From contig OZ253580.1 of NCBI GenBank assembly GCA_965263035.1, forward strand, positions 1 to 64,000: DNA of 64,000 nt, in the 5' to 3' direction. How positions within the stretch are numbered: the first letter of the stretch is position 1; each line of letters opens with the position of its first letter. Shown here piece after piece: positions 8,913 to 52,387 of this stretch. Under the pieces are notes generated by a model. It saw nothing but the letters and a program-made list of their open reading frames with translations. It was not told the DNA's origin and did not search any database. Origin of the DNA: Acidobacteriota bacterium (GTDB taxonomy: Bacteria > Acidobacteriota > UBA6911 > RPQK01 > JAJDTT01). A program made the translations under genes and the position numbers.

Positions 8913-11268
8913 TCACAGGTCGCCCGGTCTGGGCATGCGGTAGCCGACTTGGCGCTCGGTGAAGATGTAGGCTGGACTGGCCGCGTCATCGCCCAGCTTG
9001 CGGCGGAGCCTCTTCACGAAGGCGTGCACCACCCGATGGTCGCCGGATTCCCGCCGGTCCCAGACTTGGCGCAGCAGGGAATCGTACGTCAGGATCCGGC
9101 CCGCGTTGACCGAGAGTGCTCGGAGCAGCTCGTATTCGGTAGCCGTAAGTTGCACCGGCCGGCCACCGTCACCCGGCGGGCCTCATAGTGGATGGCCAGA
9201 TCCCGCAACCGAAAGGGTTCCGGCGGCTCGTGCCGCCGGCGCAGGGCCGCGCGGACTCTTGCCGTCAACTCCGTCGGCGAGAAAGGCTTGACGATGTAAT
9301 CGACGGCTCCGGCCTCGAAGGCCCTTGCAATCGTCTCGTCCCTCCCGTAGCCGGAGATGAAGATGACCGGCAAATCAGCCAGCTCGGGGACATGCTCCAT
9401 CAATTCGATTCCATCGGTCCCGGGAAGCATCAGGTCCAACAGGACCAGGCGGGGCTTCTCCGTCTTGATGAGGTCGGATACCTCGCGCGGGTCGCCCGTC
9501 ACGAGCGGCACGTATCCTGCCCCCATCAAAGCGTCACGAACGTACCGGAGCGTCTGCGGGTCGTCGTCCACCACCAGGATGCGCGTTCGTTCCTGGCCGT
9601 CCCGAGACGCGTTGGACGAACTCCGGGCGAAGCCGGACCCGGCTCCGGGGCCGGCCTCGTGGACCACTGGAATCGTGAAGGTGAACCGTGTTCCCAGGCC
9701 CACCCCGCCACTCTCGGCCCGGATGCGCCCCCCGTGCGCCTCCACCAGACCCTTGCAGATGGCCAGCCCCAGGCCGGACCCGCCGATCCCGCGATTGTCG
9801 CCGCTCACGCGCGCGTGCTTCCGGAAGGCAGGTGCGGCAACAGTTCCGGCGGCACTCCCAGGCCTTCGTCGGCGACGGAGATCGCCACGTGGACGCCATC
9901 CCGGGCCGCGACGACCCGGATGGGGGACGACTCGGGAGAGTGCCTGGAAGCGTTGGACAAGAGATTGTTCAAGACTTGGATGATCCGCCGCTTGTCGGCC
10001 ATCACCCGGGGCAGGTCCGGAGGCAGGTCGATGCGGATAGTGTGCCGGCCGCCGCCACTCAGGAACGTGTTTCTGGCCTGGTCCACCAGGCCGGCCACGT
10101 CGGTGGGATCGGGGGTGACCGACAGCGTGCCCGTCTCGATGCGCCCCGCATCCAACAGGTCGCTGATCAGGCCGCGCATGTGATCGGCCTGCTCGTCGAT
10201 GATGCGGAAGAACTGGAGCAATTCGGCCGGGTCGGGCGCCGGAGACGCCCCGAGTACCGTAGCGGTCGAGCCCTTGATGGAGGTCAGCGGAGCCCGCAGC
10301 TCGTGGCTCACCATGCCCAGGAACTCGGCCCGCAACCGCTCCAACTCCTCCAGAGGAGCCAAATCCTGCATAGTGACGACCACCGACTCGATCGTGCCGT
10401 CCTCGGAACGGATTGGCGCAGCGTTCATCAGCGTCGTGACACTCCGGCCGTCGGGCACCTGAAGGACGATCTCCTCGGCGCGGATCGTCGAAGCGTTGCT
10501 CATCGCCTGAGCTGCGGGAAATTCTTCCAGCGAGATTTCCCATCCGTCAGGGCGGCGCAACGTCACTACCTCCAGCAGATCCTCCACGCCGCGGCCCGGC
10601 GAGAGCAGGCCTCCGACAATCCGCTTTACCTCCCGATTGAACGACACCGCCTTGCCGGACTTGGCATCGAAGACCGCGACGCCCACGGGCGAGATGTCGA
10701 CCAAGGCCTCCAGGTCGGCCCGGGCCCGCTGTTCGTTTCGGAAGGCGCGGGCGTTCGCAATCGCCGTCGCCGCCTGCGCCGCGAACAACACCAGGACCTC
10801 TTCATCCTCGCTCGTGAACCCCTGTCCGTCTTCCTTCCCAGCGAGAAAGAAATTGCCGACTTGGACGCCCTGATGATGCATTGGAGTACCCTGGAAGGTG
10901 GACGGCGGCAGCACATCCAGGGAATAGCCGAGCGATCGGACGAAACCGTGCAGGTCCCGGAGTCTCAGAGGTCCCGGAAGATCACGTAGGTGCTCGAAGA
11001 AACGCCAATTATCGGGCCAGTCCAGCATCCGCCGATGGTCGTCGGGAGTCAGGCCGGATAAGACGAAGTCCTGGGGCTGTCTAGATTCGTCGAGGATCGT
11101 GATGGCTCCGTAGCGAGCGCCGGTGAGCTCGCGGGCGCTTTCCACAACCTCGCGCAGGACGGTGTTGAGGTCCAGGCTCGAGCTGATGCGCAGGCTGGCG
11201 GCGCTCAGCTTGGAGATGCGATCCCGCAGCGCCTCCATCCCTCGCCTCAGTTCGTCTGGACTCTGCAT
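8913..11268 (-). pseudogene. Hybrid sensor kinase/response regulator (GAF-PAS-HisKA-HATPase-REC-wHTH) with two frameshifts (~9830, ~9150)
   Basis: [13 protein letters not shown]-box, NNLLSNA N-box, [11 protein letters not shown]-box, ILVVDDD REC, OmpR-type C-terminus, spread over three ORFs. Confidence 0.85.
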
Positions 11269-16113: not shown

Positions 16114-17170
16114 TCACCCCGTCGGGTAGTCCGTTCCCGGTTCGCTTTGCGAGCAGGAGTCATCCCATGCCTGGAGCTCTCGCTTCATCGAGGCAGCCAG
16201 TTCAGGCAGGTCCGCGACCAGGTTGTGCCGCTCCCCCGGGTCGACGGCCAGGTCGAAGAGCATGTCGTCCCCGACGCGCTCCTGGTCGAGATAGGACAGG
16301 AACTTGTAGCGATCGCCGATCAAGGCATGGTCAGGCGATCCCAGCCGGCTCTGCATCCCCCTCTCGCCGCTATCCGGGGTCTGGAAGGCGATGCGCTTCC
16401 CGCGTTTTTGCATGCCGCCGTCGACGAGGGACAGCAGGCTGATCCCGTCCACAGGGCGGTCATCCGAAGGCACATCCAAGCCCAGCGCGGCGGCCACGGT
16501 CGGAACGTAGTCGCTCGTCGAGCAGGGCACCGCGGTCGACCTGCCCGCTTCCACCCGACCCGGCCATTCCAGGATCCCCGGCACCCGGATGCACCCCTCG
16601 AAGAGGCTGCGCTTGCGACCCCGGAGACCTCCGCTCGATCCACGATCGTTCCCGGATTGAGGCGTCCTCCCCTCGGGGCCGTTGTCGCTGCAGTACCAGA
16701 GCATCGTGTTCCCCGAGATTCCCAGTTGCCTCAATTCCCCACGCAAACGGCCGACCTGCTCGTCGAGCGCGGTGATGCAGCCGTAGTAGTGCTGCTCGCC
16801 CTCGCTGAACCCGGCGTACAGCTCGCGGTTGCGAGGGCCGGCCAGCACCGGACTATGGGGAGTGTGAAACCAGATCACCGCGAAGAACGGGGTTCCGCTC
16901 CGGACGGCCTTGCGAATGAACGGGACGGCGCGATCCATGATGACCCGCGAATCATCGCCGTCGAGGATAGGAGCCTGCGCCGCAGAAATTGATCTACTGC
17001 GAAAGCGGTAGAATCGGTCCATATTCCCTCGATTTCTCGGCGAATAGAACAACTATGCACCTCCAAATCGAGAAAATCTGGACTCGATTTCCCACTTTCT
17101 CGCTACGATCATTTCTACCGCGCAGACTCCTATCGGTCGCGTACTCGCCGGGGCCGGTCCAGTACTTGGA
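16114..17170 (-). pseudogene. Sulfatase, C-terminal part (interrupted by MITE-A)
   Basis: PFFAVIWFHTPH, YCSDNG, LRGRKRSLFEGCIRVPG, LFDLAVDPGE; removing the MITE restores YWTGPGEYATDILDGDDS. Confidence 0.85.
16967..17133. mobile_element. MITE-A copy 3
   Basis: Inserted at ATAT with a TA duplication. Confidence 0.92.
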
Positions 17171-41270: not shown

Positions 41271-42442
41271 ATGTCTAGTTACACCTCCAATTTCGCCGTC
41301 CGTCTATTCTACAGTTATAGCCACAAAGACAGTCATTTTCGCGACTCTATGGAAGACTCGCTTTCATTGCTCAAACAACGTGGATTGCTCGATGACTGGT
41401 CAGATGTAAAGATTTTACCCGGAGGAAAGATCTCGAAAACCAACAGGAAGAAGATGGATAACGCTGACATCATGGTGTTTCTTCTCAGCCGGAACTTCAT
41501 TGCTTCGACCGAGTGCATGAAGGAATGGGAGTACGCAAAGCGTCGTACTAATGAAAAAGTGCTCGTCCGCATTCCAATAATTCTATCCGATTGTGCGTGG
41601 CTAGATTTGCTTGGGAGCGACGACATCAAAGCATTGCCGCGAGATGGCAAACCTATCATGCGATTTGCCGATGACGGTGGCGCCTGGCAACAGGTATATG
41701 AGGGCATTAAAGTCGTTGTAGACAACTTACGAACAACTTTCACTCCAAAACAGGAATTCTTGGAGATAATGGAGAAAACCGATTTCTTGTCCGTACAACA
41801 CATTAGACTACAGGACATTTTTATATTTTTAAGATTGTCCTGTTACGCACCTCATGCAAGGGGGGAACATCCACCAAAAGAACAGGTTGACACCATAGAG
41901 GAGCTATTAAAGAATAAATATACGATAGTCCACGGTGACGAGATGAGTGGCAAGACAGCTCTCGGGCGCTTTCTGTTTCTTTCTCTGACAAAGGAGTTGG
42001 AACCTGTTCTGCATATAGATTTGCAACATCTTCCTAGACGTCCCCTTCGAGAAGAAACCTTTCGCCATACATATCACCGGCAGTTTAATGGCGATTATTC
42101 TCTCTGGAAGCGACAGCCTTCAAAAACCCTTATATTGGACAACTTGCAGCCAACTCCTCAATTAGTTAAATTTATTGTACTCTCCAAGGATTATTTCGAT
42201 AAAATAATAGTTACTTTATCGTCTGATATATTCAACTCGTTTTTCAGGGACGAAGAGCGTCTGGCCGAATTCTATGAAATGGAAATTGAACCGCTTACTC
42301 ACCGACAGCAAGAGACGTTGATTAGAAATAGACTCCGATTGTCGGATCGTAGCGAAACAATCACCGACGGCGTCGTCGATCAAATAGAAAACCGAGTGAA
42401 TTCCATAATCATTTCTAACAGGATCGTACCACGGTATCCATT
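41271..42442 (+). pseudogene. TIR-domain P-loop NTPase, 5' half
   Basis: FYSYSHKD...SRNFIASTECMKEW TIR; GDEMSGKT Walker A; ends at the TSD. Confidence 0.88.
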
Positions 42443-42493
42443 GGGGACTACACAGATGTCTAGGCACGCCCAAATGCGCCAAATCAGAGACTA

Positions 42494-42580
42494 TCAATCT
42501 CGCACGAAAGTGCTAGAATAGGAAGAGGGGAGCACAACAACCAAGGGCCACACCATCACAACTGCAAGGCCATCAGTCAT
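42494..42580 (-). CDS. 28-aa hydrophobic peptide (type I toxin-like)
   Basis: MTDGLAVVMVWPLVVVLPSSYSSTFVRD; SD GGAG; paralog adjacent. Confidence 0.45.
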   Translation of the reverse strand: MTDGLAVVMVWPLVVVLPSSYSSTFVRD

Positions 42581-42604
42581 CTTAAGGCTCCCCTGCCCCA
42601 TTGC

Positions 42605-42688
42605 CTACCGAATCAGGTAGAATGGCGGGGAGGGGAGCATAAAAACCAAGGCCGACACTAACACAATTAGATCAGCGGCATCAGTCAT
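42605..42688 (-). CDS. 27-aa hydrophobic peptide (type I toxin-like)
   Basis: MTDAADLIVLVSALVFMLPSPPFYLIR; SD GGAG; TATAAT upstream. Confidence 0.45.
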   Translation of the reverse strand: MTDAADLIVLVSALVFMLPSPPFYLIR

Positions 42689-42766
42689 CTTAAGGCTCCC
42701 CTCCATCATTTCATTATACTGCTTGCCTGTAAGATCAGACCCACGAAAGTGCTAGAATGGGATGGA

Positions 42767-42857
42767 GGCGGGTTGCCCGACTTTGGATGATGGGGCCTGT
42801 TTCAGAAACAGGTTGGTCCTTATGGCCACGGAGGTTCGAGTCCTCCACCCGCCTCCA
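42767..42857 (+). tRNA. Atypical tRNA, anticodon CAG, long variable arm, U73, CCA encoded
   Basis: GGCGGGT/ACCCGCC acceptor; CCTGT-TTCAGAA-ACAGG; GGAGG-TTCGAGT-CCTCC. Confidence 0.8.
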
Positions 42858-42904
42858 TCAGGGTTATTGTACTGCTTGCCTGTAAGATCAGACCCACGAA
42901 AGTG

Positions 42905-43159
42905 CTACAAGCCCTGTCGGTGAGACCTTTCTTTTGGAGTCAATGCCCATTCGACACCTCTCGGTTGATGGACTTTCCCTTGGTCCCTTAACAGTTTGAG
43001 TTGTCCTGTAGTAATTGCATTGAACCCCTGCTCTGGCAAACCGAGCTTTTCAGTAATTGGACTTAACGACAACCCCTCCTCGTATTTCTCCAATAGATTC
43101 AAGATTCCAGCTTGGATCAAGCGTTCTCCCATCTCTGCAAGCATTCTAGCCTCTGCCAT
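42905..43159 (-). CDS. Small winged-HTH-like protein
   Basis: ILNLL...GLSLSPITEKLG...LKLLRDQGKV...WALT; SD AGGAGG. Confidence 0.6.
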   Translation of the reverse strand: MAEARMLAEMGERLIQAGILNLLEKYEEGLSLSPITEKLGLPEQGFNAITTGQLKLLRDQGKVHQPRGVEWALTPKERSHRQGL

Positions 43160-43185
43160 CTGCTTCCTCCTAAGTAAAATACATC

Positions 43186-43485
43186 ATGGAACTAGGATTC
43201 ACACTTCCACCCACCCGACCCCGCCCAAAGATCCCTCTACAGCAAACGTGTAAGAGGTGTGGGCAACCAGACAAGTTCGACTTCCACGTACCAGATCATC
43301 TTTGGAAGTCTATAGTCCCAAAGTCCCATCGGAACCTTGCTATGTGTCTGTATTGCTTCGATGAGGAGGCCGCCGCTAAAGGTATTCCCTACGCGTGGGC
43401 CATCACTGAGTTTTGTTTTGCAGGCCGCGGAGCCACATTTGGCTTCACGGTGTCACGATACGTTGAAAAGAGGCAACTGATCTAG
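43186..43485 (+). CDS. Small CxxC...CxxC protein
   Basis: CKRC and CLYC motifs. Confidence 0.55.
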   Translation: MELGFTLPPTRPRPKIPLQQTCKRCGQPDKFDFHVPDHLWKSIVPKSHRNLAMCLYCFDEEAAAKGIPYAWAITEFCFAGRGATFGFTVSRYVEKRQLI

Positions 43486-43649
43486 TCGTCACAGTCGCCG
43501 TCCTTTTCTTTGGCCTGGCACTGATTGCAAAGTTCCCCGCTGGTCGGCTTCGCGTTCCTGCTAACGTAGTCGTCCGTTGGCCAGTTGGAACAGTTGCGGC
43601 AATAGTGCCACGTATCGCTCGTTCTTCGCTTTCGGTATTGTCTCGCCAT
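43482..43649 (-). CDS. Small zinc-finger-like protein
   Basis: TWHYCRNCSNWP...GELCNQC; SD GGGG. Confidence 0.6.
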   Translation of the reverse strand: MARQYRKRRTSDTWHYCRNCSNWPTDDYVSRNAKPTSGELCNQCQAKEKDGDCDD

Positions 43650-43766
43650 GCTTTTCACCCCCTTTCTGGCTAGTCGTGATCCCATTAAGGAAGGAATCAG
43701 AGGAGCTTGATAAGAGACTTCAAATATAGCTTGAGTGCACGCCCAAATGCGCCAAATCGGATATTC

Positions 43767-43979
43767 TCAATCGTCAATCTGAGAGGCAGCGAACTCCAAG
43801 ACTCGGGCTAGTTCTCGGGCTTGGTTAGTACTCATATATGAGTAAACATTACCGTTTTCAATCCTCAGTTCCAGTGGGTAAGTCTCTTTGCAATCTTCCT
43901 CGTGAGGGTATCGAAGGCGAACTTCCCTGGTGGGGTACGCGCTCAATGTGATCTCAAATTCTTTCTTACTGTCTATCAT
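43767..43979 (-). CDS. Hypothetical protein (preceded by a 36-aa ORF at 43992-44102)
   Basis: Strong SD GAGGAG; 70 aa. Confidence 0.6.
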   Translation of the reverse strand: MIDSKKEFEITLSAYPTREVRLRYPHEEDCKETYPLELRIENGNVYSYMSTNQARELARVLEFAASQIDD

Positions 43980-44548
43980 GGTCCTCTCCTCCTATAGTCC
44001 CAACATTCGAGCAAACTGCTCCTTGGTCATGCCGTCATAAATGCTGCGTTTCGGCCTGAAGAAGTTATTTAGATGTTGCAGTACAATAATGACAATTGCC
44101 ATTGGTTTACATCTCCATAGTTATTTCATTGGCAACGGCCAGGGGGTTTGGGAGTTCTTCCCCCTGGCCACTAACCTTCCTCAGATATCATACCACAGAA
44201 TCAGGAAAAGGGAACGGCGGGGAAGAGCGGAGGAGTCTGACGGCTCCGAAGCGACACACTACGCATCAGATCCGACACCCGGCTTTCCAGTGTGTCACAG
44301 GCTCCCTTGCGTGCGTGAGCAAGTAGGCAAGGAGTTCATCCTCCGCTCCTCTGTCCTCTTATTGTACTCCGTGTGCAATACGTGGAGGATTTAGGAGGCG
44401 GCGCGGCTCCAACATGGAGCAAAGGGTTTTGTGTAGCCAGTTCAGTTAGGCAAAAACGCGCCGCCCTGGTAAATGCCTACCATGATATTCGATGGAGTGC
44501 AACCTGTGATCTGGATTTCTTGTCACAGGTGGTCTACGATGCGGTGGA

Positions 44549-44652
44549 GGAGGGGTGGCAGAATTGGCATTGCACTCGAATTTAAACTCGTAGGTCAGTA
44601 GGCGTTGCACCACAGCGCACCTGTACGGGTTCAAATCCCGTCCCCTCCTCCA
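44549..44652 (+). tRNA. Degenerate tRNA-like gene; very long variable arm, irregular anticodon arm (loop around TTTAAA)
   Basis: GGAGGGG/CCCCTCC-TCCA acceptor; ACGGG-TTCAAAT-CCCGT T-arm; D-loop TGG. Confidence 0.6.
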
Positions 44653-44662
44653 TTGTGATGTC

Positions 44663-44751
44663 GGGAGCGTGGCCGAGTTGGATTATGGCGCCCGGCTGAA
44701 AACCGGGTGGGTGTAACAGCCCCGCAGGTTCGACACCTGCCGCTCCCGCCA
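44663..44751 (+). tRNA. Atypical tRNA: Ser-like body with GAA (Phe) anticodon
   Basis: GGGAGCG/CGCTCCC-GCCA; CCCGG-CTGAAAA-CCGGG; long variable arm; G73. Confidence 0.85.
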
Positions 44752-44773
44752 TCAATTCATAATACTCGGAGCA

Positions 44774-45223
44774 TCAAAAAAGCCTTTGACTTCGTTGGAG
44801 CAGGCCATCGAGTCTTCCTTTCGGAAGTTTTCCAACAGATTCCCAAATCGTCTCTCCAAAAACCGCCTCATACGATCCTGATTCGATGAACTCAGTAGCG
44901 TTTAGCGAGAGGATGACCCCAACACAGTCCGCCAGTATCAGTGCGGCCAGCGCCTCACGTCGGACCATCCCTCCAAAACCATTACGGGCACCAAAATCAA
45001 TTAGGACTAGTCGATACCCTTTAAGTTCAGGAGAGCTAGACGCGATCGTTTTTATTACTGTAGTGCTGTACACCTCCAGGCTGTTAGGGTCTGTCAACTT
45101 CTGTTGAATCTGCTCGTTTAGACCCGGAACACTGCCGTCTGAACTCATGCAATTAGACCCACTCGACGGCGTACAATTGGCGGTCAGAAGCACAAGAAGC
45201 AAAACGGTGCAGGAGTTTTCCAT
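44774..45223 (-). CDS. Putative lipoprotein
   Basis: LLLVLLTANC lipobox-like; FGARNGFGGMVR motif. Confidence 0.6.
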   Translation of the reverse strand: MENSCTVLLLVLLTANCTPSSGSNCMSSDGSVPGLNEQIQQKLTDPNSLEVYSTTVIKTIASSSPELKGYRLVLIDFGARNGFGGMVRREALAALILADCVGVILSLNATEFIESGSYEAVFGETIWESVGKLPKGRLDGLLQRSQRLF

Positions 45224-45254
45224 AACTCAATCTTTAATTAGAATAGATGTAGAC

Positions 45255-45345
45255 GGCGGGTTGCCCGACTTTTGGATGATGGGGCCTGTTTCAGAAACAG
45301 GTTGGTCCTTGTGGCCACGGAGGTTCGAGTCCTCCACCCGCCGCC
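45255..45345 (+). tRNA. Atypical tRNA, anticodon CAG, long variable arm, G73
   Basis: Near-identical to 42767-42857 except the discriminator; TAGAAT upstream. Confidence 0.8.
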
Positions 45346-45477
45346 CTTGCAATGAAGGAGGATGAGAACCGAAACCGTGCCTTCCCTAACTTCACACTGC
45401 CGACTAGAGCAGCTTAAAAGAAGGCGAGTAACGAACCGAAAAGCTCATCCTCCTCCATCAATTTATAATACTTTGAC

Positions 45478-46755
45478 CTAAAGTCCTGGCACAGAACTGC
45501 ACTTCGATGGAACGATCACAGGATCATCCGATTCCTCAGACTCTCGGTACCTAATAGACCCTCTTTGCGACCAGGGGAGGTTAGGCACATCGGGCAGTTC
45601 AATCTCTGTTCTAGTACCGCCTACGAATCCCTTATCTGGCACCAGTACCCATTCACCACGCCTGTACCAGATGTGAGATCGTGCCCAGACCCGCGAGTAC
45701 CTAATATCGATCGGATCATCTTCGGACATACGTCGGTGGAAAGCGCCGATGTTTGGATTAGGTTTAGAGCTACTAGAAAAGGAACTCGTCCAACTCAGCT
45801 TTCCAGAGAAATTCAACCTGGCCGTAGCGACACATCGACCTGGTCTTTCTTCAAATACCTGGTGGATCTGGTATCCTTGTGCAGTATCAGGCAACTCATA
45901 TCCGCCATCAGAGGTACGGGTTCTACCACCTCCTGCAGGAACCACTGACATCCCATTCTCCAGAGCAGGAGGGATCCCTTGGTAGTCAGCACGTGCTGCC
46001 TTCCCATAGATGCCTTCTATTGTGGTGTCAAAAGCTCCCTTTTCCCGTATTACAATGTCTCTCCAGTCACCAGGGGGACAGTCACCTTCCGTCACGTCTG
46101 GAGGGCCTTCATACAATCGCTCCCACTGTGCTTCATGCCACCGGGCGTTTCCATACTCCGGAGCAAAAGACTCAACTACCATCAAGGTGTAATCGAGCCC
46201 TGTCCCTGACTCTGGGTCGTCCACTTTGACAAGCCAACGCTTGAACTCATCTACAACTCGCCGATTCATGTCGGAGTAGCTTTTGACTCCGACAATGTGC
46301 CCACGGAAGTACTCGGTCCCAGAGAACGAATCAGAGAGAACACGTATACATTCCTCTGTCTTGAGGACTTCATGGGCATCTTGAATGGGCGCTTCGGTGA
46401 GCTCCACTGATTCGCACTCGAGTTCGTCTTTGAATCTAAAGGAGTCTGTTGGGTCCTTGTCTCCATAGATGAGTACAAGAGGGTCGGGAAGAGGAACGAC
46501 CATTGCAGCAAAGAACTTCCCTGACTCGTACTCTGTGACTCTCCACTCATAGATGTGACCACAATGGATCGCATCAAAAAATTCTAGGTTGATGATCTGA
46601 CCGTCGTGGGGAGGCTCTGAAAGACTCACCTCAACGCGACAATCTGGACAGGCGTTAGGGATAAATCCGTATGGAGTGTCGAATCCCCACTTCTCCTCGG
46701 CTTGTACATTCGCCAGGAATGCAGCAAAGGCCATTAGCACAATTACTTTTCTCAT
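45478..46755 (-). CDS. Secreted hypothetical protein
   Basis: MRKVIVLMAFAAFLANVQA signal peptide; SD AGGAGG. Confidence 0.75.
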   Translation of the reverse strand: MRKVIVLMAFAAFLANVQAEEKWGFDTPYGFIPNACPDCRVEVSLSEPPHDGQIINLEFFDAIHCGHIYEWRVTEYESGKFFAAMVVPLPDPLVLIYGDKDPTDSFRFKDELECESVELTEAPIQDAHEVLKTEECIRVLSDSFSGTEYFRGHIVGVKSYSDMNRRVVDEFKRWLVKVDDPESGTGLDYTLMVVESFAPEYGNARWHEAQWERLYEGPPDVTEGDCPPGDWRDIVIREKGAFDTTIEGIYGKAARADYQGIPPALENGMSVVPAGGGRTRTSDGGYELPDTAQGYQIHQVFEERPGRCVATARLNFSGKLSWTSSFSSSSKPNPNIGAFHRRMSEDDPIDIRYSRVWARSHIWYRRGEWVLVPDKGFVGGTRTEIELPDVPNLPWSQRGSIRYRESEESDDPVIVPSKCSSVPGL

Positions 46756-46783
46756 AGCGTACCTCCTTACTCTGTATTCAGAT

Positions 46784-47128
46784 TCAGAATCCCAATGCCT
46801 TGCGGGCGAACTTCTGGATCTGTTTCCACATAATGACCTGATCGAAGTGATGGTCAACGCCGTAATGGTCAGTGTGCGTTATACCATCCTTCAAAATCTC
46901 GCCTGCAATGGGGAGCACGGAGTCGGGAGTCCACCGAGTCAGAACGTCCGAAGGATCGTCCGTCCGGCACAGGTACATCTGTGCTGTAATAACGATCATG
47001 TAGTCGCCTGTGTCGGACGGAATCACGAACAGTGCGTTTGGAGGAGTCTCCACCTCCGTGTTCCAAGGGTGTCCCACACCAAACGCGACGGATAGAATTG
47101 TGATAGCGATTAGCAATGTGTTTCTCAT
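46784..47128 (-). CDS. Secreted hypothetical protein
   Basis: Signal peptide; SD AGGAGG; TATAAT upstream. Confidence 0.65.
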   Translation of the reverse strand: MRNTLLIAITILSVAFGVGHPWNTEVETPPNALFVIPSDTGDYMIVITAQMYLCRTDDPSDVLTRWTPDSVLPIAGEILKDGITHTDHYGVDHHFDQVIMWKQIQKFARKALGF

Positions 47129-47991
47129 AATGCCTCCTTCTCGTACCTTGTGTACGACTTGTTGATTTATGACATCGGTGACCGACGCATTTAGTACACT
47201 ATTATATCACATTATAATAGATGCACAAAGCAAGACGACCAAGGAATTAAGGAAGTATTCGGAAGGGGCGGGACAATAACAAACCGCCCCTTCGAACATC
47301 GCTCCGGGGTCGGGTGAAAGTAGTAAAGCCCTCCCCCATGTGGGAGCGATTACCGGGGTGGCCGAATCAAAGCTACACCTTCATCGTCGTACTGTCCGAC
47401 CCAATTATCGTGGGACAGACGATGTCGGGCGTGCGATCTCAACTGTGCCCGAGTTGCCGGGAGGAGCAGACCCATGAGGCGCGTCTGATCCTGAGCGAGG
47501 GGCAACAACGCTTCCCAGGTAATGCCTCCTGGCGCAGTCATCAAGTGATCGAGGTATCCGGCGTAGGTGCTGAAATTGCGGGGCATCGCGGGTCCCTCCT
47601 GGGGGAGGGTCCCGTATCAGAGGCGTAGCAAGCTGACAACGTATCGGGTAAACTGTCTGACAGGCTGACTTTCCTCCAACACAGGACCAGTTGGCTCAGA
47701 GTCCGTTGGGTGCTGATATCACCTGACGGACTCACCTTTTCAGAGTACTCGGCCTAGCTACAAGGAGCACTCGTTCCCTTGTAAGGGAGCCGGGTCTGAG
47801 TGCTCATCGAACAGCGATGCTGATGGAAGAGTTGCTTATTCACCCGGCGCGGTTCATGAGGCCACGCTTTACCAGGTTGTTTTATTCAGCAAGAGACCCG
47901 ACACAAGCGAATCACTGCCGAGAGCACTGAGGCGGGATTGTGCCGGATAAATAATTGGTAGTCAATAGAAGGGAGAAAATTATCTCAACTC

Positions 47992-48219
47992 TCAGCGGAG
48001 GGTGTCCACCACGGCATTCCGTACCGATTCCATCCAGGTCTCAATCTCCCGCTGGTGTTGGACCAGGGCCTTTACCTTGTCGTCCACAATCCGCAGCCGT
48101 CGGATAATGAGCAGGTGAGAGACGATGATGAGGAATAGGACCAGGAGCAAGGCGAAGGCGTACCAGTGTTGATCGACGATGGGAGGGATTCGGGAGAGTA
48201 ATGAGTTGAGCTGTTCCAT
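47992..48219 (-). CDS. Small single-TM protein
   Basis: FALLLVLFLIIVSHLLII followed by a coiled segment. Confidence 0.55.
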   Translation of the reverse strand: MEQLNSLLSRIPPIVDQHWYAFALLLVLFLIIVSHLLIIRRLRIVDDKVKALVQHQREIETWMESVRNAVVDTLR

Positions 48220-48272
48220 GCTTCAATCTTCCTGCTTTGCCGAAGTATAATACATACATGGCGGAGGGTTGA

Positions 48273-48348
48273 TGGACGCAGCGGGCTTCGGACCCGCGTC
48301 TCCCGGTTTTCAGCCGGGTGTGTTATCCGGGATAAACACTATGCGCCC
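48273..48348 (-). tRNA. Atypical tRNA: G3:U70/A73 (Ala identity) with GAA (Phe) anticodon
   Basis: GGGCGCA/TGCGTCC-A; GTGT/ACAC D-stem; CCCGG-CTGAAAA-CCGGG; GCGGG-TCCGAAG-CCCGC; no encoded CCA. Confidence 0.75.
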
Positions 48349-48475
48349 TCGGTTTGCTTTTCCCTCCGCCATTCTAAACATCTTGCCAAGGTCAGGGGTC
48401 TTTGGTATTTTGGCCTCTCTCGCGCATGATTGTAGGCAATCAATATTATGTGTTATCATGTGTTCTTCAATGATG

Positions 48476-48551
48476 TGGAGCCGGTGCCAGGAATCGAACC
48501 TGGACACGAGGACTTGCTGGGCCCCGGCGTTTGCCATTCCGCCACACCGGC
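48476..48551 (-). tRNA. Atypical tRNA, anticodon AGC, C3-G70, U73, CCA encoded
   Basis: GCCGGTG/CACCGGC-TCCA; GGGGC-CCAGCAA-GTCCT; CCAGG-TTCGATT-CCTGG. Confidence 0.75.
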
Positions 48552-48575
48552 TCCCTTCATTATAGACCGTCAGAG

Positions 48576-48651
48576 GGGAGCCGGTGCCAGGAATTGAACC
48601 TGGAAACAAGGAATTGCGAGTCCCCGACCTTGGCCACTCAGTCACACCGGC
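48576..48651 (-). tRNA. Atypical tRNA, anticodon CGC, C3-G70, U73
   Basis: Same body; GGGGA-CTCGCAA-TTCCT. Confidence 0.75.
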
Positions 48652-48675
48652 TCCCTTCATTATAGACCGTCAGAA

Positions 48676-48751
48676 GGGAGCCGGTGCCAGGAATCGAACC
48701 TGGAAACAAGGAATTGCCACTCCCCGACCTTGGCCACTCGGCCACACCGGC
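48676..48751 (-). tRNA. Atypical tRNA, anticodon GGC, C3-G70, U73
   Basis: Same body; GGGGA-GTGGCAA-TTCCT. Confidence 0.75.
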
Positions 48752-48871
48752 TCCCTTCATTTTAGCACAGGGGGACTATCGTGAAAAAACGACCTCGCAA
48801 GCCCGTGGACATCCTAGCCCTGGCAATGCGCCGGGCTTATGAGCAAACTAGGGGCGGAGAAGCCGAATCCC

Positions 48872-49843
48872 TCAATGAAGATCGTCCGCCTTGTCGGAAA
48901 CCAGATCGAGATACAGCAGACGACGACCGACCATCCCCGCCACGATGTGCTTCATCTGGTCAATAGTATCCAGTTCCCGGATGTTGTGACGCTTGACAAA
49001 CTCGTTGACGTAGCGGTGCAGGTGCTTCACGCTCAAGCTGTGGAACGTCCCCATGTAGCCCCGCTTCAACATCGACCAGAAGGATTCGATGCCATTTGTG
49101 TGTACTATGCCGTCAACGTACTGTTGAGCGCTGTGTCTCACAGACTTGCGATTTGAGCCCATCCAGGCGTAAGCCTGATTCTCGTCCGTGTACGACTTCA
49201 CTCCGAAAGTGGAGCTGTCCAAAATGAACCGGGCAAGAGTCTCCTTTGTCGTGTCCGGCACCACCCTGGCCCTGATTTGATTCGTAGGCCGGTCCTTCAT
49301 GCCTACCACTGCGGTCTTGCCTGAGGGTCCACGACCGGAAAACATCGCCCGTCGCTTCTTGCTCATGTTCCTCCGCTTGCCTCCCATATAAGTCTCGTCG
49401 ATTTCCACGGGACCGATCAGAGCTTCCAAATCGTCCTTGTCCAAGGACTCGCGGAGTCGGTGCAACATGAACCACGCCGTATTCTGCGTCACGTCGATGT
49501 CTCGATGGAGTTTCATCGAGGAGACTCCCTTGAGGTTCGTGACGTAGATGAAAATGGCGTAGGCCCATTTTCGGAGCGGAACCTTGGATCTTGTCAAGGC
49601 CGTGCCAGTGCGGACGCTGAAATACCTACGGCAGTCCGAACACCAGTACGGCTGCGGATATCGGTTTGGCGTCTCATTCGTCTTGACGCTGCCGCAATGA
49701 CCACAGCACCGTTCCTCGGGCCAGAGAACATCCTCAAACCATTTCGTCGCGGCTTCCTCCGTGGGGAACATCTCCGCGAGTTGGATCATTGAGATCCCTT
49801 GTCGGTAGAACTTTCCGGGGGCTTTCCCCTTGCACTTGTCCAT
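48872..49843 (-). CDS. IS1595-family (ISXO2-like) transposase
   Basis: Zn ribbon CGHC/CSDC; VEIDETYMGG, YTDE, HTNGIESFWS. Confidence 0.95.
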   Translation of the reverse strand: MDKCKGKAPGKFYRQGISMIQLAEMFPTEEAATKWFEDVLWPEERCCGHCGSVKTNETPNRYPQPYWCSDCRRYFSVRTGTALTRSKVPLRKWAYAIFIYVTNLKGVSSMKLHRDIDVTQNTAWFMLHRLRESLDKDDLEALIGPVEIDETYMGGKRRNMSKKRRAMFSGRGPSGKTAVVGMKDRPTNQIRARVVPDTTKETLARFILDSSTFGVKSYTDENQAYAWMGSNRKSVRHSAQQYVDGIVHTNGIESFWSMLKRGYMGTFHSLSVKHLHRYVNEFVKRHNIRELDTIDQMKHIVAGMVGRRLLYLDLVSDKADDLH

Positions 49844-50152
49844 GGTGGGCCTTTCGTGGTAGGATTCTCGGGACGCGGCTGAACCGAGGAACCCACGGCC
49901 TGGCAACCTCCGTTTGTAAGTGAGAGACCAGAGCGCAGGACCTGCTTCGAAACCGCGTCCAATTCAATTATATCACACCTTTATAGATGGTGTTTTTATC
50001 AGCCTTACTCTCCTTTAATTCCCTGTAATTATGCCATCGGACCCTGACATTTTTCTGTCATAAATCCTTTGTTTAGTTTAAGGTTACGAAGATTTAATTG
50101 ACCTTTTGTGTGATTGTGTGGTAAAATTATTGGGTTAATGTGAACAGGAGGC

Positions 50153-50332
50153 ATGATGACTAAGAAGGAACTCAACGGATTCACAGAGGCAGTTCGAACG
50201 GTTGTCCGAGAGGAATTAAAGCCGATTGAGCAGCGTCTCGACAAACGCCTTGACGACTTGAAGAAGGAAATCCCTGGTCTAGTTGCGGACGTGATCGCAC
50301 AACGATTTCCAACCCTGTTCCCACACTCATAG
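50153..50332 (+). CDS. Small coiled-coil protein
   Basis: MMTKKELNGFTEAVRTVVREELKP...; SD AGGAGG; paralog of 50427. Confidence 0.6.
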   Translation: MMTKKELNGFTEAVRTVVREELKPIEQRLDKRLDDLKKEIPGLVADVIAQRFPTLFPHS

Positions 50333-50426
50333 GCTGCCAGATCAATTAGGAGGAAGGTTACGAAGATTTAATTGACCTTTTGTGTGATTGTGTGGTAAAA
50401 TTATTGGGTTAATGTGAACAGGAGGC

Positions 50427-50705
50427 ATGATGACTAAGGAAGAACTCAACGGTTATGTCAACGCCGTCAGGCTCGTGGTCCAGGAGGAACTTGAGCCCGT
50501 CAAATCTCAGATTACAACCCTGACTCTTCGAATGGGAGATGTGGAACTGAGGTTGGGAGAGGTTGAAGCCAGAATGGGCACGTTGGAGTCTCGCATGGGA
50601 ACGGTCGAGGCCAGAATGGGGACATTGACTCAGAGAATGGGTGATGTTGAGACTAAGGTAGGGGCGTTGACTCAGAGAATGGGTGATGTTGAAGCCAAAT
50701 TGTAG
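50427..50705 (+). CDS. Small heptad-repeat coiled-coil protein
   Basis: (A/S/Q)RMG(T/D)(V/L)E heptads; duplicated 85-bp promoter/RBS block. Confidence 0.65.
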   Translation: MMTKEELNGYVNAVRLVVQEELEPVKSQITTLTLRMGDVELRLGEVEARMGTLESRMGTVEARMGTLTQRMGDVETKVGALTQRMGDVEAKL

Positions 50706-51073
50706 GATGGGGTGATGGAGGAGAACGACTAGACGTAGTTGTAGGGGTAGGTGACTACTGCCCCTCCGGGGGGAGCGATGGAGTTAGTCAAACTACCACT
50801 CCCTCTGTCCCCTCCATCATTTAATTATACTCCCCACGAAAGTGTAGAATGGGATGATGGAGGAGGGAAACCAATCCTGCCGTCCCATGTATTAACACCA
50901 CAATCGGCAGGGCTACCGTTGAGGCACACCCCAAGGCGGTAGGCTGCTCAGCGATAGTGTGTCTTCCACTGGGTCCAGCCATCGCCCTCCTCCATCATGT
51001 GATTGTACTCCCCACGAATGTAAGGCCCAGTTCAATGACCCTGGAGGCGTGCCTAGACATCTGTGTAAGCCCC

Positions 51074-52387
51074 TATCCATTCTACGTACTCTCAATACTC
51101 CAAACCTACGAGGCCTTTATGCCTAGTGAGCTCTCTATTACTTCCTACGGTCACTGTTACTATGTCCTTATTATTGCCAACTTAGTTAAGGCAGGCATAC
51201 CTCGTAGCGACGATCAACTAAATACATGTTTTTACTTTGCAGAACGCTTAGCATTTGAAATTTATCGGATTGCAAGGAAATCCAACTCGGGGTCGTTGGA
51301 TTTTGACAAGTTTGTGGCGGACTACAGAAATCAATATATAATTTCGCGATCGGTCCTGAGTAGGTTGATGCATCCCGATTTTGGAATCATCAATACAGAA
51401 GGTCAATTCAAAACAGCGTACATGTACTACTTCTTTCTGGGCAGGTTCCTCTCGAAGAACCGCAGCACACACATATCCATAATTGAGAATATGTGTGAAA
51501 ATAGCCACGTGACTTCGAACCACCTGACGCTTCTTTTCGTTATTCATCATACTGATGATAGACAAATAATTGATGACATATTGCTTAGGACAATGTGCAC
51601 ACTGGACACTGTGCAACCCGCGGTTCTAGATCGAACGGAAACTCGGAGATTCAAGGATATCATTGCCGGGCTCCCCACAAATATACTCTCCAATGATAGT
51701 GTGGTGAAGGAAAGGAAAAGACAGAGGGATGGTCGCGACTTGACCGAGAAGCAAGACGGGTACGATGGTGATACGGATGGCATCGATCAACAAAGCCTGG
51801 TTAACGACATTTACAAAATCTTTAAAAATAACGAGATTATGGGGCAAATTCTACGAACCAAATACGGAACGTTAAAAAAAGAGACGATTGTGGAAATCAT
51901 CGAGACGATTGCGGACAGTGGGCTACGCCTTGTCAACTTTGTCCTCAAGGATGAAAAGGAAATAGCCGATACCGCCCACTACCTTCATGCGAAATATCCG
52001 AAGGATGATATAAAGAAGATAAAAAACTATCTTCAATTCTTTTCTTTTTTCTGGACGATAGTAAATGTTGAAAAAGTTGCTAGAGCCATAAATGTTCCAG
52101 AGATTATTGAAACGGTCGATTCAGTCGTTACGCGGAAGGGGTCGCCGGCGTACGATCTTATTGGATACTTCAGCCTGCTCGACAGTTCTCCGGAAATCTC
52201 AAGGAAAGTTAATAAACGACTAGGATACCTATTGAACACTCACAAGGACCTGTTTGTTAAGTGGGTGTTGTCAATTAGAACGCAATACTATATGAATACC
52301 CACGATAGTGGGGCATCGATGGAGCAATCGGTCTGTTCGTTGTTAGATATCAAGTATTCCTCAGCCCATCGTTCCTTACGACGGTAA
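51074..52387 (+). pseudogene. TIR-domain NTPase, 3' half
   Basis: Removing the transposon and one TSD gives in-frame NRIVPRYP|FYVLSILQ; 825 aa in total. Confidence 0.88.

Follow-up and report, generated by a model that had tools for sequence, protein, structure and literature searches.

A serine-type tRNA gene with a phenylalanine anticodon on an IS1595-family transposon of an Acidobacteriota bacterium

How should a bacterial gene be read that folds like a serine tRNA and carries the anticodon of phenylalanine? Such a gene, here called tRNA (c), lies at 44663-44751 of the window, by which we mean the whole stretch analysed: positions 1 to 64,000 of contig OZ253580.1 (assembly GCA_965263035.1), from an Acidobacteriota bacterium. 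It stands within a transposon of the IS1595 family, among further tRNA genes that we letter (a) to (h). From comparisons of its sequence with those of its relatives, we conclude that (c) is a real, conserved and mobile tRNA of hybrid identity. We first set out its structure and authenticity, then its carrier, and then weigh which amino acid it would bring to the codons UUC and UUU.

Structure and authenticity of the tRNA gene

Two genes carry most of the argument, the one in the window and a homologue in a congener, genome G004 (the window's own genome being G000):

44663-44751, plus strand: tRNA (c), class II, 7/5 acceptor/T split, 89 nt, anticodon GAA, G73, CCA encoded (ARAGORN, Rfam)
L201:8183-8272, plus strand, in G004: homologue of (c), class II, Rfam 44 bits, ~75% identical to (c)

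ARAGORN listed six tRNAs in the window and named the one at 44663-44751 (+) tRNA-Phe(gaa), 89 nt. The Rfam tRNA model matched it over its full length (1-71) with 52.9 bits (E 3.1e-9), inside the range of the host's class II tRNAs (45.3-63.2 bits), and the class II cloverleaf is the minimum-free-energy fold of this strand alone (-42.4 kcal/mol). The acceptor stem has 7 bp (GGGAGCG/CGCUCCC), the D arm reads GCCG-AGUUGGAUUA-UGGC with G13 paired to U22, and the 17-nt anticodon arm reads CCCGG-CUGAAAA-CCGGG (CCCGGCUGAAAACCGGG); these are followed by a variable region of 16 nt with a 4-bp stem and a T arm with a 5-bp stem (GCAGG-UUCGACA-CCUGC). U8, A14, G18G19, U54-U55-C56, A58 and G53:C61 are all retained. 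A preliminary description made from the letters of the window had noted a clean cloverleaf, a long variable arm, G73-CCA and the loop CU-GAA-AA, all of which were borne out by the two programs and the fold. It had placed the anticodon at 44696-44698; those bases are C32-U33-G34, and GAA occupies 44698-44700. Its remark that the anticodon arm recurs proved exact, the 17 nt being found again at 100% identity in the tRNA at 48273-48348 (-) (inverted repeat I3). As judged from these features, (c) is a functional-looking elongator tRNA gene in which a serine-type class II body is joined to a phenylalanine anticodon.

Given that GAA is one base away from GGA, and that serine tRNAs with single-base loop changes do occur in metagenome contigs, a sequencing or assembly error for GGA has to be weighed. 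In the Logan contigs of each of four runs, drawn from three studies (X1; X2 and X5; X6; depths ~4, 30-57 and 2), 42878-45300 is covered by a single 2,423-nt piece with no differing letter, although the runs may include the source strain and are thus not fully independent. GAA is therefore not a one-off assembly error, and an error is excluded at the level of contigs. The arm's presence twice in the window and the identical loop in the homologue of another genome tell the same way, so that the chance of an error is negligible, as the preliminary description had argued.

The G004 homologue has the loop CUGAAAA on the stem CCCGA/UCGGG, the acceptor stem GGCAGGG/CCCUGCC, A73, the 3' end CCA-UCA and A-U at 11:24, with a TAGAAT box ~10 nt upstream. 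In this two-sequence alignment, 25 pairs are predicted, of which six differ in both bases (3:70, 6:67, 11:24, 31:39, 51:63 and one in the variable stem) and one in a single base; no pair is broken, and the 7-nt loop is identical. Compensatory change around an unchanged loop suggests selection on both the cloverleaf and the GAA anticodon, and it speaks against both an error and a dead gene. A covariance model built from the pair scored 114.5 bits in G004 and 107.4 bits in G000, and at most 72.6 bits anywhere else in the 76 genomes of the order; 74 of these (G016 among them) held no member of the family.

The tRNA is cargo of an IS1595-family transposon

The carrier, its insertion site and the other units in it are as follows:

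42443-51073, whole element: IS1595-family transposon, 8,631 bp, carrying tRNAs (a)-(h) and three hairpins
48872-49906, minus strand: transposase, Pfam DDE_Tnp_IS1595 (PF12762, E 1.8e-34) and Zn_ribbon_IS1595 (PF12760)
41271-42442 (frame 41271-42521), plus strand: N-terminal part of a TIR-STAND anti-phage gene, Pfam TIR_2, DS8_antiphage positions 311-560, PADLOC ThsB-like TIR
51082-52387 (frame 50957-52387), plus strand: C-terminal part of that gene, NCBIfam DS8_antiphage positions 554-994 (E 5.1e-68), PADLOC PDC-S60
42526-42711 (~42526-42606 and ~42631-42711), plus strand: two hairpins GGGGAGC...GCUCCCC (repeats D5, D7, D8)
42767-42857, plus strand: tRNA (a), class II, CAG, U73-CCA, TAGAAT box ~10 nt upstream (ARAGORN, Rfam)
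44549-44652, plus strand: irregular tRNA (b), Rfam 39.4 bits, U73-CCA, 10 nt upstream of (c)
45255-45345, plus strand: tRNA (d), ~97% copy of (a), CAG, G73, CCA not encoded (repeats D2, D11)
45361-45457, plus strand: tRNA-like hairpin ending UCCA-UCA, conserved internal motifs, copies in genome G010
48273-48348, minus strand: tRNA (e), class I, GAA, G3:U70, A73, Rfam 50.6 bits, missed by ARAGORN
48476-48752, minus strand: tRNAs (f) AGC, (g) CGC and (h) GGC, three tandem 100-bp units (ARAGORN, Rfam, repeat D1)

The element has 28-bp inverted ends (42443-42470 and 51046-51073, alike at 26 of 28 positions), and the 8-bp direct repeat TATCCATT stands on either side of it (42435-42442 and 51074-51081); target duplications of 8 bp are typical of the IS1595 family. 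Excision in silico of the 8,631 bp with one repeat copy left a single frame of 825 amino acids. At the sequence level, the inverted ends, the target duplication and the restored frame together show that (c) is cargo of an 8.6-kb transposon, to which an IS1595-type DDE transposase and terminal inverted repeats with the 8-bp duplication give the two marks of that family. The element is present once in the genome, alongside 17 other transposase matches by tblastn, mostly of ~50% identity, and its GC content is 51.8% against 62.1% for the genome.

By all these signs, the insertion is what split the TIR-STAND anti-phage gene. By alignment, its halves correspond to residues 18-407 and 402-832 of the intact homologue P0001, the best match and one of 87 longer homologues of which the closest (down to ~34% identity) have 834-918 amino acids and mostly TIR domains. 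The other frames of the element encode small zinc-ribbon-like or helix-turn-helix-like proteins and, besides these, two proteins with signal-peptide-like starts; they matched no family. Searches of the element frames with Pfam, NCBIfam and PADLOC found no synthetase, toxin or transferase family; most frames match nothing in these, and a novel enzyme is possible.

Among the genomes of the order, the closest transposase at the DNA level is that of G004 (76% over 924 nt). It belongs to an element of 4,799 bp with ends at L201:6161-6188 and 10932-10959, which resemble those of G000 at 22-23 of 28 positions, and with the target duplication AATTGAAT. The two transposases share 78% amino-acid identity, and the G004 element also has homologues of a 425-aa secreted protein and a 78-aa frame (both ~35%) and three tRNAs: one of the (e) type, an unusual class I tRNA (6-nt loop, G73), and the homologue of (c). 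In G010, from a sister genus, the transposase shows 57% identity and is accompanied by an (e)-type tRNA with G3:U70, A73 and the loop CCUAGAA and by at least two copies of the 45361-type hairpin (L188:9903-10090 and ~16547-16597). The three elements therefore make up a lineage of IS1595-family transposons with tRNA cargo.

All eight Rfam-scoring tRNAs between 40 and 52 kb fall between 42.5 and 48.8 kb, and in them acceptor features and anticodons disagree. That (c) belongs to such a mismatched set and is carried by a transposon had escaped the preliminary description. The nearest to (c), the irregular (b), has normal acceptor, D and T arms separated by ~50 nt in which there is no clean anticodon arm, and it was missed by ARAGORN; (b) and (c) are probably co-transcribed. 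The pair (a) and (d) differ by U73 against G73, a toggle like that between G73 and A73 in (c) and its homologue. The tRNA (e) bears G3:U70 and A73, which are alanine marks, together with a 12-nt D loop and the T loop UCCGAAG. In (f)-(h), one acceptor and T arm (GCCGGUG/CACCGGC, U73, without G3:U70) comes with three anticodons and a TATAAT-like box ahead of each unit, and the acceptor equals the stem of host tRNA-Thr(CGU) in six of seven pairs. With AGC, CGC and GGC the trio therefore covers the alanine box, and on its sequence the set is designed-looking. We also observed that (f)-(h) combine a short variable loop with class II-like D arms, that (f) has C33 and A34, and that GCA, the cysteine anticodon, stands at 35-37 in all three, which recalls the off-by-one histidine triplet reported for irregular soil tRNAs in PMC5389517.

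An (e)-type family is common to the three transposons (window 48273-48348 (-), L188:9744-9819 and L201:10567-10676 (-)). Its members are class I with a 12-nt D loop, A73 and non-standard T loops; G3:U70 is present in two of the three copies and replaced by C3·U70 in G004, and the anticodon loop varies between GAA, CCUAGAA and a 36-nt insert (G004). To judge by these copies, the family resembles an alanine-type acceptor joined to a reader that can change. The 5' strand of its anticodon arm is CCCGG in G000 and G004 and CCCGU in G010, and because (e)-type bodies thus carry the same stem, the arm shared by (e) and (c) probably moved from an (e)-type body into the serine-type one.

The three hairpins have single-stranded, CCA-bearing 3' tails, and two of them end U-CCA-UCA. 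Of the two at 42526-42711, each preceded by a TGCTAGAAT box, the second has this ending and a fold z-score of -3.67, and the first a longer tail before CCA and a z-score of -0.67. The 45361-45457 type, ~95 nt long, has the internal motifs CCGAAACCG ... GUAACGAACCGAAA and a CCA-UCA tail, stands 3' of a tRNA in both G000 and G010, and matched no Rfam family. The tail form CCA-UCA...AUAAUACU recurs across the element (repeat D4). Most units start ~7-10 nt 3' of a TAGAAT- or TATAAT-like box, several of these boxes being preceded by TG; promoter-like sites numbered 13 against 7.4 +/- 2.7 in shuffled sequence, a difference that is not decisive.

Promoter-plus-leader modules are repeated in the element (repeats D3, D5), and 43737-43772, 1.27 kb inside it, is a 36-nt, 89% copy of 42464-42499, just within the left end. 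Duplication of cassettes seems to have enlarged the cargo. Coverage by run X6 is confined to the left half of the element (42400-45910), and a contig of that run ends at 45761 with 22 letters foreign to the genome, which resemble a common cDNA-amplification adaptor; were X6 a cDNA library, they would hint at transcription, and we draw no conclusion from them. The window around the element is a plasticity zone with four further transposases, a phage-type integrase, a replicase-family gene, T5orf172 and HNH genes, a 1,869-aa STAND-like ATPase, a 2,221-aa subtilase with LDL-receptor-type repeats and many frames without a family match.

Amino-acid identity and possible activity

The host genome, a single 6.2-Mb contig, has a complete ordinary tRNA set, with single genes for tRNA-Phe(GAA) (class I, A73), tRNA-Ser(GGA) (G73) and tRNA-Leu(CAG) (A73); since the host keeps these of its own, (c) is an extra tRNA. 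A changed genetic code was considered and rejected, UUC and UUU being read as ordinary phenylalanine in the element's genes. Between the transposase and nine distinct paralogues, 115 of 143 conserved columns agree, and the 28 that differ include F/Y, F/L and L/F and no F/S. In the 425-aa secreted protein, aligned with its G004 homologue over 399 residues (158 identical), phenylalanines of G000 face F eight times, Y three, I three, L two and S none.

Four extra class II tRNA-Leu(taa)-like genes lie elsewhere in the host (G000:C1, 2101850-2101936, 2914932-2915018, 5348837-5348922 and 5672126-5672212). Their acceptor is unusual in its C1:G72 pair (CCCCGG.../...CCGGGG), and all have A73 and a common upstream motif. 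Two are identical including their flanks, and another IS1595-type transposase stands 2.35 kb from one of the four. Rfam gives three of them low scores (37.8-41.6 bits) and does not list the copy at 5348837.

For the copy in the window, serine is the best amino-acid call, because several features point the same way. Among host class II tRNAs G73 occurs only in the four serine tRNAs, with A73 in those for leucine and tyrosine. The variable arm of (c) leaves one unpaired base at each junction, as in host serine tRNAs, against two (leucine) or three (tyrosine) on the 3' side. G1:C72, G2:C71 and C11:G24 accompany G73, which together are the identity marks defined in E. coli. In the covariance model of the family, the next sequences within G000 are host Ser(GGA) and Ser(UGA) (69.3 bits), ahead of (a) (63.4) and Leu(CAA) (63.1). 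The sole match of (c) in phage and plasmid collections was an annotated phage tRNA-Ser(gga), 77% identical over 83 nt, the plasmid collection giving none. This Microbacterium phage gene (H2) shares the 16-nt variable arm and G73 with (c), its T arm is similar and its acceptor differs at two pairs, but its GGA sits on a different anticodon stem and it is a normal serine tRNA. Set against bacterial tRNA-Ser, then, (c) has the arm junctions and all four marks and lacks a serine anticodon (NGA or GCU); set against tRNA-Phe, it has the anticodon and lacks the class I body with a 5-nt variable loop and A73. Such a loop and A73 are found in the host's own tRNA-Phe (3042190), as the preliminary description had supposed of phenylalanine tRNAs in general. 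Its further premise, that seryl-tRNA synthetase (SerRS) ignores the anticodon, is so stated in PMC7609411 and PMC11415595.

Several observations weigh against a serine tRNA acting at phenylalanine codons. The preliminary description's serine-type reading holds for the class II body, G73-CCA and the arm junctions, and is weakened elsewhere: the 16-nt variable arm is shorter than those of host serine tRNAs (at least 18 nt), the D loop has one extra base ahead of G18G19, as in host leucine tRNAs, and position 73 of the G004 homologue is A. In bacteria A73 accompanies leucine, tyrosine or phenylalanine rather than serine, and the A73 of the G004 copy would point to leucine or phenylalanine there. 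What the family keeps, as far as its two members tell, is the class II body and GAA, not serine identity. The G13·U22 pair of (c) weighs the same way. Phenylalanyl-tRNA synthetase (PheRS) reads the anticodon, GAA with A73 being its main mark; A73 is absent from (c), and some charging with phenylalanine is possible. Nothing on the element needs serine at UUC or UUU, where relatives have phenylalanine or other hydrophobic residues. That the strain tolerates the gene speaks for low activity, and members of the family were found in only two of the 76 genomes. Serine insertion at UUC/UUU thus stands as the most likely activity of (c), tentatively held and weakened by the A73 homologue.

Spelled out, this activity would make (c) a SerRS-chargeable missense tRNA in competition with host tRNA-Phe, a proposal that we find credible without being persuaded of it. 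Transcription would start from the -10-like box just upstream of the adjacent (b), and processing would release (c). SerRS, blind to the anticodon, would charge it with serine; EF-Tu would deliver it, and it would compete with the single host tRNA-Phe at UUC and UUU. The outcome would be a partial, probably low or conditional, proteome-wide substitution of serine for phenylalanine with no change of code. The neighbours may act alike, (e) placing alanine at phenylalanine codons, (d) serine at leucine codons and (f)-(h) threonine at alanine codons. A broader and more doubtful extension is that this IS1595-family lineage spreads a kit of mis-decoding tRNAs (phenylalanine to serine, alanine or leucine; leucine to serine; alanine to threonine), each behind its own minimal promoter. 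Host or element might switch them on, under phage attack or stress, say, to scramble or diversify the proteome, with the discriminator base as an evolvable switch of the inserted amino acid.

Three other accounts have to be set beside the missense tRNA. The A73-CCA of the G004 copy, in a family that keeps GAA and the class II body and not G73, fits a UUC/UUU decoder charged by PheRS through its anticodon or by leucyl-tRNA synthetase, that is, a spare or nuclease-resistant tRNA-Phe or a phenylalanine-to-leucine tRNA. The companion (e) likewise joins GAA to A73, GAA differs from the leucine anticodons UAA and CAA at position 34 alone, and the spacing before G18G19 in (c) is leucine-like. We nonetheless consider such a decoder unlikely for the window copy, whose G73 is confined to serine tRNAs in the host's class II set, whose variable-arm junctions are serine-like, and whose family model ranks serine tRNAs above leucine tRNAs. 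The irregularity of the cargo would instead fit a structured RNA with a non-decoding role: it might trap a tRNA-targeting toxin or a modification enzyme as a decoy or sponge, serve a tRNA-dependent transferase as donor, or take part in processing or regulation of the transposon. Here belong the ~50 nt that separate the D and T arms of (b), the T loop UCCGAAG of (e), the 36-nt insert of the G004 (e)-type tRNA and the 6-nt loops; the discriminator varies, and one anticodon arm on two bodies could mean a shared binding partner. There is also precedent in PMC5389517 for G-1 irregular soil tRNAs that were charged yet did not decode in E. coli. Set against this, nothing that makes a working elongator is missing from (c): the loop is of 7 nt and contains U33 and A37, G18G19 goes with U55-C56, and CCA is encoded. 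The acceptor and T stems, important for charging and for EF-Tu, are preserved by compensatory change. The unmatched majority of the element's frames aside, Pfam, NCBIfam and PADLOC place no transferase, toxin or synthetase domain beside it, and a non-decoding role too seems improbable to us.

The gene might finally be an inert passenger, a mutated serine tRNA gene carried along by a transposon of recent acquisition and either silent or inactive in its present host. The element is single-copy, foreign in composition (51.8% against 62.1% GC), lodged in a broken gene and missing from all but two of the order's 76 genomes, and solitary class II GAA tRNAs in metagenomes often have broken acceptor stems. 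Six both-sided changes with no broken pair and the same loop at 75% identity are unexpected in a decaying gene, however, and both copies keep a promoter-like box and encoded CCA, which leaves this account quite improbable.

Wider occurrence and relation to known systems

BLAST of 44540-44760 against 40 relatives gave no match, and BLAST of the 6.4-kb cargo against 400 genomes of the phylum, with two candidates scored per genome, gave short weak matches only. The pattern CTGAAAA was found in none of 400 other genomes of the phylum; a GGA control recovered 5 of 60, so that the pattern is insensitive and the zero weak. A scan of genome contigs for YTGAAAA was set aside as a detector, as it also catches the Ser(UGA) loop one base out of register: among the matches listed (120 loci), 111 were Ser(UGA) and three were class II GAA (L051, L073, L076). 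Pattern scans of viral contigs returned no match.

Class II GAA tRNAs recur in metagenomes but are rare there. ARAGORN read 38 of 56 pattern-matched metagenome loci as class II GAA and five as Ser(tga), with two unreadable and 11 yielding nothing; none of the 56 was close to (c). Perfect stems with G73 were seen in L132/L175 (with CCA), L138, L147 and L129, and L153 is a class II GAA tRNA with G3:U70 and A73-CCA. At 20 loci the GAA tRNA was solitary in Rfam's gathering mode, which can miss such tRNAs: it missed the 44-bit G004 homologue that evalue mode detected, so its negatives are weak. Among the neighbours (45 of the 89 frames in 20 chosen loci) were housekeeping genes at L163, L138 and L147 and transposase or defence-like genes at L149, L124 and L156. 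A soil group (L149, L163, L165, L166, L173, L177, L124, L156, L161) has a TAGAAT-like box ~9 nt upstream and a conserved 3' end ...UCCCUA with positions 1-2 unpaired; it is not one clone, because T stems differ between its members. L163 and L166 also carry Acido-Lenti-1 RNA, and an IS1595 transposase fragment lies near L149.

To our knowledge, natural tRNAs that deliberately break the code are few: yeast CUG tRNAs, allo-tRNAs and tRNAProX. Allo-tRNAs, as described by Mukai et al. 2017 (PMC5389517), are bacterial tRNAs that bear serine identity marks and in most cases a non-serine anticodon, and transposable elements or toxin-antitoxin genes are often close by; two allo-tRNAs put serine at leucine codons in E. 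coli and were toxic, and a phenylalanine anticodon was seen once. They resemble (c) in joining serine marks to a non-serine anticodon, and the activity proposed for (c) is of their kind. Their acceptor/T split is 8/4 or 9/3, however, whereas that of (c) is 7/5 and supported by covariation, which places (c) outside their class; (c) also has a defined IS1595-family transposon as its carrier and a homologue in which GAA is conserved. Nearer to the array as a whole are the polycistrons of irregular 7/5 and 8/4 tRNAs, resembling missense or nonsense suppressors, that the same paper reports from forest and peat soil metatranscriptomes, among them U73 species judged poor substrates of threonyl- and glycyl-tRNA synthetases and species with extra loops. 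Compared by description only, these are the nearest described counterpart, but they come from metatranscriptome contigs without a defined element, whereas here the ends are mapped, most genes have their own -10-like box and (c) is fully regular.

In Streptomyces and Kitasatospora, according to the review PMC11415595, tRNAProX with ProRSx combines the acceptor identity of one amino acid with the anticodon of another, including an A34 AGC. Hybrid identity is common to that system and the element, as is the A34 AGC in (f). tRNAProX has proline identity and a dedicated synthetase paralogue, whereas (c) is serine-like and no aminoacyl-tRNA synthetase family was detected in the element, so that no such pair is found here. 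A human variant, tRNA-Ser-AGA-2-3 G35A, is a serine tRNA with a phenylalanine anticodon that places serine at phenylalanine codons, as reported in PMC12993449. It shares with (c) a phenylalanine anticodon one base away from a serine one; it is a segregating eukaryotic point variant and not a conserved, mobile bacterial family. In the literature covered, neither a bacterial 7/5 serine-type tRNA with GAA nor tRNA cargo on IS1595 elements is described, the sequences of the irregular tRNAs of PMC5389517, possible relatives, having stayed outside the comparison.

What is new here, then, is a serine-type tRNA of standard shape with a phenylalanine anticodon, conserved, with covariation, on mobile DNA and accompanied by alanine-type, threonine-like and other mismatched tRNAs. 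If (c) is active, mistranslation of a sense codon would be a transferable trait, and the G73/A73 homologue pair would be a natural experiment in identity switching; for engineering, compact promoter-tRNA cassettes could be taken from the element. Should (c) be inactive in decoding, it would point to an as yet undescribed use of tRNA shapes by transposons.

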